Source of the DNA: Clostridia bacterium
Lineage (GTDB): Bacteria > UBA6262 > WVXT01
Assembly: GCA_009619095.1 (NCBI GenBank)
Contig: WJOT01000043.1
Span: forward strand, 1 to 57,308
Reading direction: 5' to 3'
Length of the DNA stretch: 57,308 nt
A program made the translations under genes and the position numbers. Within the stretch, counting starts at the first letter, position 1. Each line of letters opens with the position of its first letter. Shown here piece after piece: positions 44,045-46,580 of this stretch. The notes beneath the pieces were generated by a model. That model ran no database searches. It was given only the letters and a program-made list of their open reading frames with translations, and was not told the origin of the DNA.

Positions 44045-44599
44045 ATGTGGAGAGAAATTAGCAAATTTGGCAAAAAGATGGTTCAGTGTGGATTGGCCCA
44101 TTCCCATTTCGGCAATATCAGCGTGAGAGTAGGAAACAAACTCATAATTACCAGAAGCGGTAGTATGCTCGACGAGATCGATGAGAATATGGTAGTAGAG
44201 TTAGACCTGGATAAGCCCAGTAGTTTCGACACCATAGCTTCCTCAGAAACAATAGTCCATAGGCATATTTACAAAGAGACTTCCGCTTTAGCCATAATCC
44301 ATGCCCATTCTCCATTTGCCATAGTGCAATCGATGATTTCTTCCACAAACCTGTTAATCCCTTCCGACTGTGAAAGCAAATACTTCCTACACGAGATTCC
44401 TATCATAACAGGAGGAGTAGGGTCGAAAGAGCTTGCCCAAAACGCAGCGAATGTACTTAAAGACCACAAAGGCGCGATAATAAAAGAACACGGACCTATT
44501 GCTATCGGAAAGATTGTCGAGGAAGCGTTCGTAACGATATGTTCTATCGAGCATGCTTGCAAAGTTAAGTATTTTGCAGACCTTTTTTCTCGGAAGTAG
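44045..44599 (+). CDS. Class II aldolase/adducin family protein
   Basis: GNISVR, SSETIVH, IHAHS, EHG metal-binding motifs; RBS aaggag before ATG 44045. Confidence 0.9.
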   Translation: MWREISKFGKKMVQCGLAHSHFGNISVRVGNKLIITRSGSMLDEIDENMVVELDLDKPSSFDTIASSETIVHRHIYKETSALAIIHAHSPFAIVQSMISSTNLLIPSDCESKYFLHEIPIITGGVGSKELAQNAANVLKDHKGAIIKEHGPIAIGKIVEEAFVTICSIEHACKVKYFADLFSRK

Positions 44600-44661
44600 A
44601 TGCAGAGCAAAGCTCTGCATCTTTGATGAAATCGGCTCTGGAGTCCTCCCGAAAGGGAGGG
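44596..44661. repeat. REP cluster
   Basis: gtagatgcagagcaaagctctgcatct; ctggagtcctcccgaaagggaggg (44638-44661). Confidence 0.75.
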
Positions 44662-44680
44662 TTGATAGAAGGAGGAAACA

Positions 44681-44935
44681 ATGGTCTCTGGGTTGGTTTT
44701 TGTCCGGCTATTATCAGGACATGAAGAAGCTGTTATGGAAGCATTAAGGCAAATTAGTGGAGTCCAGAAAGTTATTGCTGTTTTTGGCCGGTGGGACCTC
44801 GTAGTTAACGTGCAAGTAGGAGATACAGATGAACTTGCCTCGCTTGTGATTAATAAGATAAGGGCAATTCCAGGTACTACCGCAACAGAAACACTAATTA
44901 CCGTAGGACTCAAAAAACCAAAAATTTTCATCTAG
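44681..44935 (+). CDS. Stand-alone Lrp/AsnC ligand-binding (RAM) domain protein
   Basis: VFGRWDLVV..V...DELASLVINKIRAIPGTTATETLI; no HTH; RBS aggagg. Confidence 0.88.
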   Translation: MVSGLVFVRLLSGHEEAVMEALRQISGVQKVIAVFGRWDLVVNVQVGDTDELASLVINKIRAIPGTTATETLITVGLKKPKIFI

Positions 44936-45013
44936 TCACTGTCAGAGCATCCTTTTCCAATCCCGTCCCTGTTTTGGGATGGGGTAGGGCGCTGAAAGTA
45001 GAATAAAATTTTC

Positions 45014-45042
45014 TTGACGTTTTATTTATTTACTAATATAAT
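45014..45042 (+). promoter_or_regulatory. Sigma70 promoter for the tRNA/GIY-YIG transcript
   Basis: TTGACG-17bp-TATAAT, about 30 nt upstream of the first tRNA-like copy. Confidence 0.75.
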
Positions 45043-45071
45043 AAATTCACTCATAGCATAAAAACACAATT

Positions 45072-45128
45072 GGGCCCATAGCTCAGCTGGTTAGAGCATC
45101 CCGATACATATCGGGAGAGTCCTAGGTT
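45072..45128 (+). pseudogene. Truncated tRNA-Ile2 copy with anticodon arm replaced by a CCCGAT hairpin
   Basis: GGGCCCA TA GCTC AGCTGGTTA GAGC A [TCCCGATACATATCGGGA] GAGTC CTAGG TT, then breaks into the GIY-YIG gene. Confidence 0.85.
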
Positions 45129-45132
45129 ATTA

Positions 45133-45387
45133 ATGTTTTACGTATATATATTAAGAAGCCTCAAAGATGGGAGTTATTACGTAGGTAGCACGTCCAAATT
45201 AGGGAAAAGAATACATAGACATAACAAAGGTCATTCCACTTCAACAAAAGGCAAAAAACCTTTAATTTTAGTCTATAAGAAAGAATATAAGCTAAGATCA
45301 GAAGCAGTAAAGGAAGAGAGAAGAATTAAGAGTCAAAAGAGTAGGATATATATTAAAAATTTAATAAAAACACAATTGGGCCCATAG
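45133..45387 (+). CDS. Small GIY-YIG nuclease family protein
   Basis: YVYIL..YYVGST..RIHRHN..EA..EERRIK motifs; about 31% GC by manual count; stop codon lies inside the tRNA gene. Confidence 0.93.
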   Translation: MFYVYILRSLKDGSYYVGSTSKLGKRIHRHNKGHSTSTKGKKPLILVYKKEYKLRSEAVKEERRIKSQKSRIYIKNLIKTQLGP

Positions 45388-45451
45388 CTCAGCTGGTTAG
45401 AGCACCTGACTCATAATCAGGGAGTCCTAGGTTCAAATCCTAGTGGGCCCA
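45378..45451 (+). tRNA. tRNA-Ile2 (CAT anticodon, lysidine type; elongator Met less likely)
   Basis: Full cloverleaf GGGCCCA/TGGGCCC, D-stem GCTC/GAGC, anticodon arm CCTGA-CTCATAA-TCAGG, T arm CTAGG-TTCAAAT-CCTAG; C4:G69 and C5:G68 TilS determinants; CCA not encoded. Confidence 0.95.
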
Positions 45452-45461
45452 TTTTTCATTT

Positions 45462-45537
45462 TAGGCCATAAATTAACTGGTTAGAGCATCCCGATACATA
45501 TCGGGAGAGTCCCCCGATTCATATCGGGGTGGGCCCA
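45462..45537 (+). pseudogene. tRNA-like copy with both anticodon arm and T arm replaced by CCCGAT hairpins
   Basis: taggcca ta aatt aactggtta gagc a [tcccgatacatatcggga] gagtc [ccccgattcatatcgggg] tgggccc a tttt; colinear with the real tRNA. Confidence 0.85.
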
Positions 45538-45856
45538 TTTTTTATTTCCGGTCATCTCTAAAGCTGGAGTCCTCCCGATAGGGAGGCTGACGACCAGAGA
45601 CCTTGCTTTCGCAAGGACTCCCAACCTTCTTGGAGTTCTCCCCGAAAGGTGGTTGTAGTGAGACCGAACTCGAAGAGGAAAAACACAGATATACATTGTG
45701 TAATCGAGAAATATCTCAAGGAGAATATGAAGAATTTAATGGGCTTTGTCAGCATTGTAAAGGAGGCCGATTCAACGAGGATTCCCTTCGCCAAAGGGTT
45801 TTCCGAAGATTTGATAACTGCGAGTTTCTCTTTAAATTTAGCAGAAAGGTGACGGG

Positions 45857-46096
45857 ATGCTTTTAAATGTCAAGGTGATTCCCAATGCCGGAAGGAACGA
45901 AATTAAAAGGGAAGGAAATTGCTGGAAAGTTCACCTGAGGGCACCAGCGGAAAAAGGAAAGGCGAATAAACTTTTGATTAAATTATTCTCTCAAGAATTC
46001 AAAGTGAAAAAGAACCAGATAAAAATAGTTCAGGGAGAAAAATCGAGACACAAAATTGTGCAGATTGGAAAGAACATTAGTGACAGTTGGTTATAA
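45857..46096 (+). CDS. DUF167 (YggU/UPF0235) family protein
   Basis: VKVIPNA, APAEKGKAN, GEKSRHK. Confidence 0.9.
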   Translation: MLLNVKVIPNAGRNEIKREGNCWKVHLRAPAEKGKANKLLIKLFSQEFKVKKNQIKIVQGEKSRHKIVQIGKNISDSWL

Positions 46097-46104
46097 TTTT
46101 ACAC

Positions 46105-46133
46105 TTGATTTTTTTCTATGGACGTAGTATAAT
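46105..46133 (+). promoter_or_regulatory. Sigma70 promoter, probably giving a leaderless transcript
   Basis: TTGATT-17bp-TATAAT, ATG begins 7 nt after the -10. Confidence 0.6.
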
Positions 46134-46139
46134 AATAGT

Positions 46140-46580
46140 ATGGAAAAAAAGGTGCTAAGAATACTAGCAATAGATGATGAAGAAGGCGTCCTGACACTTC
46201 TTAAGTTCAGACTGGGGAAGTTTGGACACGAAGTGATTACCTCTAATAATGGAATAGATGGAATTAGAAAAGCAAGGATGTTTGAGCCAGACCTTATCCT
46301 TTTAGACCTGGTTATGCCCGGGATGAGTGGCTTCAGGGTTTGTGAGTTACTCAAGTCTTATAAGAAGACAAAAGATATTCCCATTTTCATATTTACCGCT
46401 TTAGACCGGTTAGAAGATGTTGAGCGTGCTTTTGAGAAAGGAGCAGATGACTATATTGTGAAGCCATTCGAAGTTGTAACGATTAATAATACCATTGAGA
46501 ATAAATTCAGCATGTTTATTGAAAAAGCCGAATATAAGGCGGATTTTCAGGAAAGGCGTAGAGAAACTTCTGAAGAGTAA
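46140..46580 (+). CDS. Stand-alone response regulator receiver protein
   Basis: AIDDE, LLDLVMPGMSG, TA, GADDYIVKPF. Confidence 0.92.
   Translation: MEKKVLRILAIDDEEGVLTLLKFRLGKFGHEVITSNNGIDGIRKARMFEPDLILLDLVMPGMSGFRVCELLKSYKKTKDIPIFIFTALDRLEDVERAFEKGADDYIVKPFEVVTINNTIENKFSMFIEKAEYKADFQERRRETSEE

Follow-up and report, generated by a model that had tools for sequence, protein, structure and literature searches.

A putative selfish cassette of nuclease gene, hairpins and tRNA-derived sequence nested in a bacterial tRNA gene

According to the main text of Chenal et al. 2025 (PMC11893778), the single-domain GIY-YIG nucleases of the Ssn family (~94 aa, CDD cd10448) are partners of a hairpin repeat: they bind the NTS, whose core is TTCCCGCG..CGCGGGAA, and cut single-stranded DNA (ssDNA) only, on one strand and upstream of the hairpin. 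Here we describe an 84-aa GIY-YIG nuclease gene that lies, together with hairpins of a similar core, inside a tRNA gene with the anticodon CAT, in a DNA stretch of 57,308 nt from a Clostridia bacterium (contig WJOT01000043.1 of assembly GCA_009619095.1; the whole stretch is referred to hereafter as the window, and its genome as G000). We suggest, with a probability of roughly 60%, that the locus is a minimal selfish cassette nested in tRNA-Ile2(CAT), consisting of an Ssn-like nuclease, its cognate hairpins, and tRNA-derived sequence that serves as scaffold and homology. The cassette itself is real and looks selfish; how it would spread we infer from its anatomy and from its relatives.

Several further features of the Ssn systems, again as given in the main text of PMC11893778, are relevant here. 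The cut falls ~3 nt 5' of the 28-nt NTS, or ~9 nt 5' of TCCCG, as read from the description of the oligonucleotides. In 42% of homologs the Ssn gene has the repeat on both of its sides, a layout termed IS-like by the authors, and 81% of genomes with >200 repeats have an Ssn gene. The authors argue for domestication, with Neisseria SsnA proposed to act in the control of recombination or of incoming ssDNA; the repeat-gene-repeat layout is left unexplained, and no role of the nucleases is known beyond Neisseria. The word tRNA is absent from that main text, to which our statement is confined. A second precedent is SegB, a GIY-YIG enzyme from the tRNA gene cluster of phage T4, which is described in the accessible text of its report as driving preferred inheritance of the region (PMC2330249).

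Anatomy of the cassette and its nuclease

The tRNA transcription unit begins with a sigma-70-like promoter (TTGACG-17-TATAAT, 45014-45042, plus strand, as are all features below unless stated; 11/12 matches), which also stands directly before the bare tRNA gene in two genomes of the same genus with an empty site (G003 and G002, see below). It is followed by a 14-nt tRNA leader (45058-45071), which recurs in an exact second copy at 45364-45377, and by a 5' pseudo-tRNA (T*5, 45072-45128). The latter is composed of tRNA positions 1-27, a hairpin in place of the anticodon arm, and 12 nt of variable loop and T stem, with its 3' boundary at the T-loop TT (45128). Four bases separate it from the ATG of the nuclease gene at 45133. 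The hairpin, TCCCGAT-ACAT-ATCGGGA (45099-45116, 18 nt with a 7-bp stem, no strand), belongs to a genome-wide repeat family and resembles the Ssn-related motifs. As it stands in for the anticodon arm, the 5' pseudo-tRNA and the intact tRNA are identical in register at only 49 of 69 positions. The same build is seen in the related genomes G005 and G007.

The nuclease gene (45133-45387) continues into the intact tRNA (45378-45451; Rfam tRNA, 75.2 bits; 45377-45452 by ARAGORN), so that its final codons are taken from the duplicated leader and tRNA positions 1-10 and its stop is the TAG at tRNA positions 8-10. Downstream of a spacer (45452-45476) lies a third tRNA-derived piece, a 3' pseudo-tRNA (T*3, 45477-45537), made up of 12 nt of D loop and stem, a hairpin (45489-45506) identical to that of the 5' pseudo-tRNA, GAGTC, a second and similar hairpin in the place of the T arm (45512-45529), and the acceptor 3' strand TGGGCCCA. 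It runs into the native downstream flank, which is the flank found directly beyond the tRNA in G003. The start of the spacer resembles the native tRNA 3' flank, on the basis of a 38-nt repeat (D3, 79% identity) that spans the tRNA 3' end and its flank. The cassette unit measures ~0.3-0.45 kb.

Much of this had been proposed in an earlier note, made from the letters of the sequence: the promoter, the ~31% GC (guanine plus cytosine) 84-aa GIY-YIG open reading frame (ORF) four bases after the duplicated tRNA part, and the borrowed stop codon all stand. Its duplicated leader and 5' tRNA are confirmed as a direct repeat that starts at 45058, is exact over 41 bp at a period of 306 and ends at the TT, but the anticodon arm has been swapped for a hairpin. 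This hairpin, the 3' pseudo-tRNA at 45477-45537 and the link to the Ssn family had been overlooked.

The genome has three CAT tRNAs, and elimination of the other two makes the intact tRNA probably tRNA-Ile2. Judged from the sequences by the usual identity rules, the CAT tRNA on contig C37 has initiator features (a mismatched 1:72 and an anticodon stem with three G-C pairs) and that on C87 looks like the elongator tRNA-Met, while the tRNA in the window resembles tRNA-Ile(GAT) in its acceptor and D arms. Its gene has no encoded 3' CCA (45445-45455), unlike those of tRNA-Ile(GAT) and of the two remaining CAT tRNAs in this genome. A split or permuted tRNA gene was considered and rejected, given the presence of an intact tRNA and the lack of an anticodon arm in both outer halves.

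The protein matches PF01541 (GIY-YIG) over residues 1-71 (E 6e-15), with no second Pfam domain above the cut-off, and its gene has a GC content of 30.6% compared to 40.5% for the window. Residues Y5, Y16, G18, R26, H30 and E62 are invariant across 12 homologs; judged by these residues, the catalytic motif set is intact, and the protein has the single-domain size and build of the Ssn nucleases. The ratio of nonsynonymous to synonymous substitution rates (dN/dS) is 0.055-0.151 among three orthologs (G000, G005 and G007), indicating purifying selection. NCBIfam gave only sub-threshold matches, with nothing specific for the protein, and the ESM Atlas only generic GIY-YIG clusters. The genome has one further small GIY-YIG gene (on C130) and a UvrC-like gene (on C14), and a search of it found no second tRNA-linked copy. 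The C130 paralog (locus L002, 1381-1668, minus strand; 95 aa) has no tRNA nearby and is flanked by inverted repeats of the CCCCCACACCAA type. It carries an 11-aa in-frame insert encoded by the palindrome CCACCACCAAT..ATTGGTGTGG, with a like palindrome on C61, and the hairpin family around it (CCACACCAA/TTGGTGTGG) is weakly repeated (20 and 23 copies vs 11 and 4).

Seven ORFs around the cassette, between 42137 and 47994, were scanned without a hit to any integrase, transposase or reverse transcriptase; they encode AOR, class II aldolase, AsnC-type, DUF167, response regulator and DUF401 proteins and one product with no family, and no Rfam intron matches within 44500-46200. The earlier note's view that the locus follows neither the pattern of an integrase-driven island nor that of a group I intron is thereby upheld. 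Enzymes of the Seg and I-TevI types have a separate DNA-binding domain, cut double-stranded DNA, and reside in phage genomes or introns. A classical free-standing homing endonuclease would cut the double-stranded intact tRNA gene, with repair copying the cassette in; the GIY-YIG domain beside a tRNA gene and the presence/absence alleles described below would suit it, and SegB in the T4 tRNA cluster sets a precedent (PMC2330249, accessible text). We nevertheless hold this explanation to be very unlikely. The 84-aa protein, matched by Pfam at residues 1-71 only, leaves no DNA-binding extension, and there is no intron and the neighbours are ordinary cellular genes; the cassette retains an intact copy of the presumed target; and the conserved cis feature is a hairpin, which is missing from the intact tRNA.

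Within the 3' end of the ORF there is also a weak promoter-like site (45326-45354, 9/12 matches, repeat family D6), which may be a decayed copy of the -10 region of the tRNA promoter. Outside the cassette, an 87-aa ORF (45603-45866) that has cysteine pairs and matches no Pfam family is located between a repeat region and the DUF167 gene. Just 3' of the 3' pseudo-tRNA lies a nested-hairpin repeat of ~60-85 nt (45564-45650), dispersed through related genomes; it accounts for most of 51 matches in G003 and for several in G004 and G008. A contig from sequencing run X7 is without 66 nt of it (45572-45637), hence an insertion polymorphism resembling that of a miniature inverted-repeat transposable element.

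Hairpins and tRNA fragments in the genome and in related loci

The hairpin of the cassette is one of many. The pattern CCCGA-N(2-8)-TCGGG occurs 287 times in the 2-Mb genome G000, against 11 occurrences of the same pattern read backwards, with the consensus G-T-CCCGA..TCGGG-A-C; counts in eight other genomes of the family (f1) are 35-259, and genome G013 has 345 vs 23 for the control. In G000 these hairpins are frequently found within larger nested-hairpin repeats, and they form several composite repeat families with conserved flanks, often clustered (examples are TAGGCACAGATTTCCCGATTGAAAATCGGGATGCA and GGAGTGT..GTCCCGACAAGTCGGGACACTCC). As an intrinsic terminator or attenuator the hairpin of the 5' pseudo-tRNA was rejected: no T run follows it, and the sole terminator-like site in the scan was at the tRNA 3' end.

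Only one of 11 tRNA fragments in G000 adjoins a hairpin, and this is the window's own. On C18 (51598-51844), a tRNA-Gly(CCC) gene is flanked by pieces of itself (positions 53-73 and 1-52) with no hairpins. These hairpin-less pieces of tRNA-Gly(CCC), together with a pair of 3' parts from tRNA-Thr(CGT) and a single one from tRNA-Arg(CCT), are located on C18, C14 (44020-44759) and C65 (10872-10903); they are candidate att sites for other elements.

A pattern scan in which each species was represented by one genome gave 561 confirmed homolog loci, and the following counts refer to the best 80 of them. Cultivable carriers include Maribacter (L095) and Marinoscillum (L132). A tRNA or tRNA-like call on the same strand lies within 100 nt of the ORF in 58/80 loci (26 downstream, 26 upstream and 6 on both sides), as opposed to 0/80 for the opposite strand, and the layout recurs at 16 tRNA identities in many phyla. 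In 22 of the 32 loci with a downstream tRNA the ORF terminates within the tRNA, seven times at positions 8-10 or 9-11, and a partial copy of the same tRNA is usually present on the other side of the ORF. The earlier expectation that homologs would sit behind a duplicated 5' tRNA segment and draw their C-terminus from the host tRNA therefore stands for the link to same-strand tRNAs and for the borrowed ends, but in half of the relatives linked to a tRNA it lies upstream, with a 3' fragment downstream. Locus L135, in a metagenome-assembled genome (MAG) of Latescibacterota, has a transfer-messenger RNA (tmRNA) gene at 948-1372 and the GIY-YIG ORF at 1501, ~130 nt downstream of it, the tmRNA taking the place of a tRNA.

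Hairpins accompany the nuclease genes across these loci. Up to 100 nt upstream or up to 80 nt downstream of the ORF, 48/80 loci have a TCCCG..CGGGA or TTCCG..CGGAA hairpin (on both sides in 8), compared to 0/80 for reversed flanks and 5/79 for distal windows 800-900 nt away, an enrichment which partly reflects the definition of this relaxed motif, made after examples had been seen and adopted because the published pattern for Ssn-related motifs (SRM) gave nothing. One locus, L125, has a canonical NTS beside its cassette. In the window, the relaxed motif is present on both sides of the gene as the two identical hairpins at 45099-45116 and 45489-45506.

For 44 hairpins, tRNA homology could be traced to the left and to the right: 32 stand exactly where the anticodon arm would be, four replace its 3' half together with the variable loop, and four the T arm. 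On the short side of the hairpin, 7-14 nt of tRNA (median 11) are kept 5' of it in 14 of 16 3'-type fragments, with homology beginning at tRNA position 16-21 in 12, and 7-23 nt (median 13) are kept 3' of it in 21 of 30 5'-type fragments. Insertion at the T loop with a simple duplication of ~70 bp, as first envisaged, does not hold in general; what defines these loci in cis is the hairpin that replaces a tRNA arm.

The tandem arrays which the earlier note foresaw do occur. Locus L075 consists of tRNA-Pro, 11 units of 107 nt, each a full hairpin-bearing pseudo-tRNA, the ORF and one more pseudo-tRNA, and L074 of tRNA-Asp with 12 units, each 96 nt long. The ORF-tRNA unit is present three times in L121, and L095 and L099 have two ORFs each. 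ARAGORN reads hairpin-bearing pseudo-tRNAs (L075, L078, L088, L108 and L120) as tRNA-Asp or as tRNAs with an undetermined 2- or 4-letter anticodon, and therefore such elements can inflate or confuse tRNA counts in annotations.

Empty sites, inheritance and evidence for movement

Within the family, the tRNA site is polymorphic. In G005, of the same genus, we find the 5' pseudo-tRNA with its hairpin, the ORF (79% aa identity), a 12-nt leader repeat and the tRNA, with no third piece. G007, of another genus of the same family, has a tandem pair of units with a run of N between them, followed by the tRNA and one 3' pseudo-tRNA. By contrast, G003, of the same genus and with flanks 97% and 93% identical to those of the window, has a clean empty site (promoter, leader, tRNA and native flank), and so has G002, also of the same genus. 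G006, of the same family, carries at the same tRNA a different GIY-YIG gene (36% identity) with a 23-nt 5' tRNA duplicate and other hairpins. In G008, the tRNA-Ile2 site is split in the classical manner: L053 (C11, 830-880), at the syntenic position, keeps the 5' tRNA part, cut in the anticodon loop, and the intact tRNA is elsewhere (L061, C58, 1503-1577), right after the 3' end of what we read as a putative integrase-like ORF.

The structure was also sought in read data, available as assembled unitigs and contigs, in which the coverage gaps of some runs carry no meaning. A 301-nt unitig covering 45093-45393 is identical in runs X1 and X5, which belong to separate studies, and X7 has a 285-nt unitig that shows 5 differences; because matching unitigs recur in these three runs, the junctions of hairpin to ORF and of ORF to tRNA are real. 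In X5, the ORF unitig has a depth of 17.9 compared to 109-120 for the flanks and tRNA, although the depth ratios in X5 and X7 are only a hint, being derived from contigs that may include other strains. A contig from the same run joins the intact T arm straight to the native downstream flank, which is an empty-site allele in the same sample.

These data bear on the possibility that the tRNA pieces arose by collapsed or chimeric assembly or binning, a concern raised in the earlier note as well. The genome is a 132-contig MAG, the G007 repeat contains a run of N, and unitigs break at repeats, so that no single contig spans the whole structure. Against this stand the identical unitig over both ORF junctions in two runs of different studies, near-identical in a third, and the recurrence of the same structure in the independently assembled G005 and G007 and in dozens more independent assemblies, complete chromosomes included. 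An artefact is in our judgement so improbable as to merit hardly any weight. The earlier picture of a small, tRNA-tied and polymorphic element, varying in presence and copy number, is thus borne out by the empty sites in G003, G002 and run X5, the tandem pair in G007 and the spread over 16 tRNA identities.

Inheritance within the family is another matter. G000 and G005 are 86.2% identical over the whole region, G000 and G007 79-82% in the flanks and 86.5% in the ORF, and the synonymous divergence (dS) of the ORF is 0.7-1.2 among orthologs. The divergence of the cassette is therefore about that of its flanks, which points to vertical inheritance and loss on short time scales; empty sites can be explained as precise losses by recombination between the repeats. 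The 3' pseudo-tRNA is 98.6% identical between G000 and G007, against 79-82% for the flanks, which suggests constraint or recent exchange.

Evidence for movement comes from greater distances. Locus L134, from a MAG labelled Omnitrophota, and L141, labelled Planctomycetia, share 87.8% identity over 426 nt, and L097 (Aminicenantia) and L108 (KSB1) 86.7% over 391 nt. In both pairs the match spans exactly from the start of the 5' pseudo-tRNA to the tRNA 3' end, and the flanks are almost wholly unalignable. On the protein tree, tRNA identity changes 26 times, as compared to 33-39 times in 200 shuffles, and therefore a nuclease lineage tends to stay with a single tRNA for some time, although switches are frequent. 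For phylum labels the tree has 24 changes (23-26 in shuffles), i.e. there is no host signal.

It is here that a domesticated host gene has to be considered: a resident hairpin nuclease with a host function, such as that proposed for Neisseria SsnA, inherited vertically beside the tRNA, with fragments and arrays as by-products of breaks at hairpins and of slippage rather than marks of movement. The parallel divergence of cassette and flanks in the family, the strong purifying selection, and the hundreds of genomic hairpins yet only two small GIY-YIG genes would all be expected of it, and domestication is argued for in the main text of the Ssn paper (PMC11893778). However, the cassette is missing from G003 despite 97% identical flanks. 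Nor does domestication sit well with a similarity of 87-88% that is confined to the cassette, in MAGs bearing the labels of different phyla and with flanks that barely align, with phylum labels scattered at random on the protein tree, or with two nuclease lineages at the same tRNA in one bacterial family. We regard this explanation as doubtful.

Several findings weigh against a selfish, Ssn-like cassette. In the family it is mostly vertically inherited, with no recent jump seen, and the empty sites may be losses. The protein tree is built on 80 columns and is poorly resolved (31/75 forks open), and the taxonomic labels of MAGs may be wrong. No tRNA was called within 100 nt in 22 of the 80 loci, in four of which Rfam adds a cut or partial tRNA, a tRNA-like piece or a tmRNA, and several others of which are at contig ends; and the short side of the hairpin has no tRNA homology in 9 of 30 5'-type and 2 of 16 3'-type fragments. 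Among weaker homologs from relatives, 18 of 28 loci are without any tRNA in ~3 kb, and therefore the tRNA link belongs to a clade and not to all small GIY-YIG genes. The SRM pattern HGTCWYN(0-2)YYVSBRHN(0-5)WNVSBRGN(0-2)RNCYNB has no match in the window, 8 in G000 vs 3, 6 and 8 in simulated genomes, and matches in 3/80 loci vs 2/80 when reversed. With a clade profile searched against PDB, the nearest solved structures are UPF0213 proteins (BH0048, PDB 1zg2, E 1.3e-17; EF2693, PDB 1ywl, E 2.4e-13) and not any named Ssn, with SLX1 also among the hits. Finally, apart from a 23-nt repeat, the RNA run X20 reaches no further than the upstream gene (44800-45052), and is uninformative on expression of the ORF.

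A possible route of spread, and comparison with known systems

We nevertheless favour the selfish cassette, and propose that it could work as follows. The resident tRNA gene would be split into two dead halves, the 5' and 3' pseudo-tRNAs, with a hairpin replacing an arm and a working tRNA copy between them; because this full copy lies within the cassette, insertion would be costless to the cell, which the internal intact tRNA would keep alive. The protein would cut ssDNA by the hairpin on either strand, at a fixed short distance 5' of it. Since the hairpin is palindromic, both strands would offer a cut site, with cuts ~10-14 nt to either side. Such cuts would set the ends of the tRNA fragments and make a hairpin-centred direct repeat around the unit of ORF and tRNA, and the model matches the ends seen in the window, where the 3' pseudo-tRNA starts 12 nt before its hairpin and the 5' pseudo-tRNA ends 12 nt after its own.

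For spread between genomes, the outer tRNA sequence would supply arms homologous to the cognate tRNA gene; in the window, the left arm would be tRNA positions 1-27 and the right arm the 3' part of the tRNA. A nuclease lineage would in this way be tied to a single tRNA identity for some time, which fits both the confinement of similarity to the cassette and the partial attachment of lineages to one tRNA described above. Recombination between the 41-bp repeats could result in precise loss, as in G003 and G002, or in tandem gain, as in G007 and L121, with loss expected to be slower where the hairpin interrupts the homology between the 5' pseudo-tRNA and the tRNA. The anatomy further suggests that the gene is transcribed from the tRNA promoter within the tRNA precursor, in which case RNase P cleavage at tRNA position +1 would leave a message with no stop codon and a low level of nuclease.

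A more demanding version makes the cassette an autonomous transposon-like element that needs only the 84-aa hydrolytic nuclease. Each strand would be cut ~10-14 nt 5' of the hairpin, and fill-in of the staggered break would give the hairpin-centred direct repeat of ~40 bp; tRNA arms preceded by GTC would be the proto-targets, and the source of the genome-wide hairpin repeats and the Ssn-related motifs. As the element would hold an essential tRNA, its excision through the outer repeats would leave a dead tRNA, which would make it an addiction device. A GIY-YIG hydrolase is not known to be capable of strand transfer alone, and host repair or recombination must therefore complete any move. In all its details (staggered cuts, GTC proto-targets and tRNA addiction), we consider this version unlikely.

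The locus and its relatives form a large clade of small nucleases living inside tRNA genes, with arm swaps, a distance rule, pseudo-tRNA arrays and similarity across phyla that is limited to the cassette, and provide a concrete and testable model for the spread of such elements and of their repeats. They also explain many extra or odd tRNA calls in genome annotation. The cassette may be among the smallest selfish DNA elements with a protein gene, and its tRNA-borrowed stop codon is predicted to couple nuclease synthesis to tRNA processing.

The literature search for small GIY-YIG genes nested in tRNA genes yielded T4 SegB and the Ssn paper only, and tRNA is mentioned in the accessible text of a 2006 survey of the GIY-YIG superfamily only for a TrmH fusion. 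Nesting in tRNA, arm replacement, the distance rule, pseudo-tRNA arrays and the borrowed stop were not described in the literature so searched; Supplementary Data 3-5 of the Ssn paper may contain gene neighbourhoods relevant to this point.

Among described systems, integrase-driven islands share with the cassette the use of a tRNA gene as the site, a partial tRNA duplicate at one end and a regenerated intact tRNA. In contrast to them, the cassette has no integrase and measures ~0.3-0.45 kb, its fragments are 5' or 3', and an arm is swapped for a hairpin; the classical integrase-type split of the same tRNA in G008 illustrates the difference. Like the IS200/IS605 and REP/RAYT systems, the cassette has hairpin-defined ends, hairpin repeats amplified in the genome and a likely ssDNA stage, but it encodes neither Y1 transposase nor TnpB. 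SegB and other free-standing homing enzymes are similar in having a GIY-YIG gene among or next to tRNA genes, a presence/absence polymorphism and a selfish logic; the cassette protein differs in being a bare catalytic domain, encoded in bacterial chromosomes and accompanied by hairpins and tRNA fragments. The UPF0213 proteins 1zg2 and 1ywl are its best sequence matches among solved structures, but are structural-genomics entries without known function.

The closest likeness is to the Ssn systems: a single-domain GIY-YIG protein of ~85-95 aa, a gene flanked by hairpins, and hundreds of genomic hairpin copies (287 vs 11 in the control), with a core, TCCCG..CGGGA, resembling that of the NTS. We infer that the cassette works like an Ssn element, without claiming a place for it in the SsnA clade (cd10448), as the SRM pattern is unmatched and the nearest structures are UPF0213 proteins. 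The pairing of hairpin and nuclease is thus already known, and what is new in the literature searched is the tRNA nesting, arm replacement, distance rule, arrays and borrowed stop. What sets the cassette apart from the Ssn elements is that its hairpins sit inside fragments of a tRNA gene, where they replace an arm, and that an intact tRNA lies within the unit.

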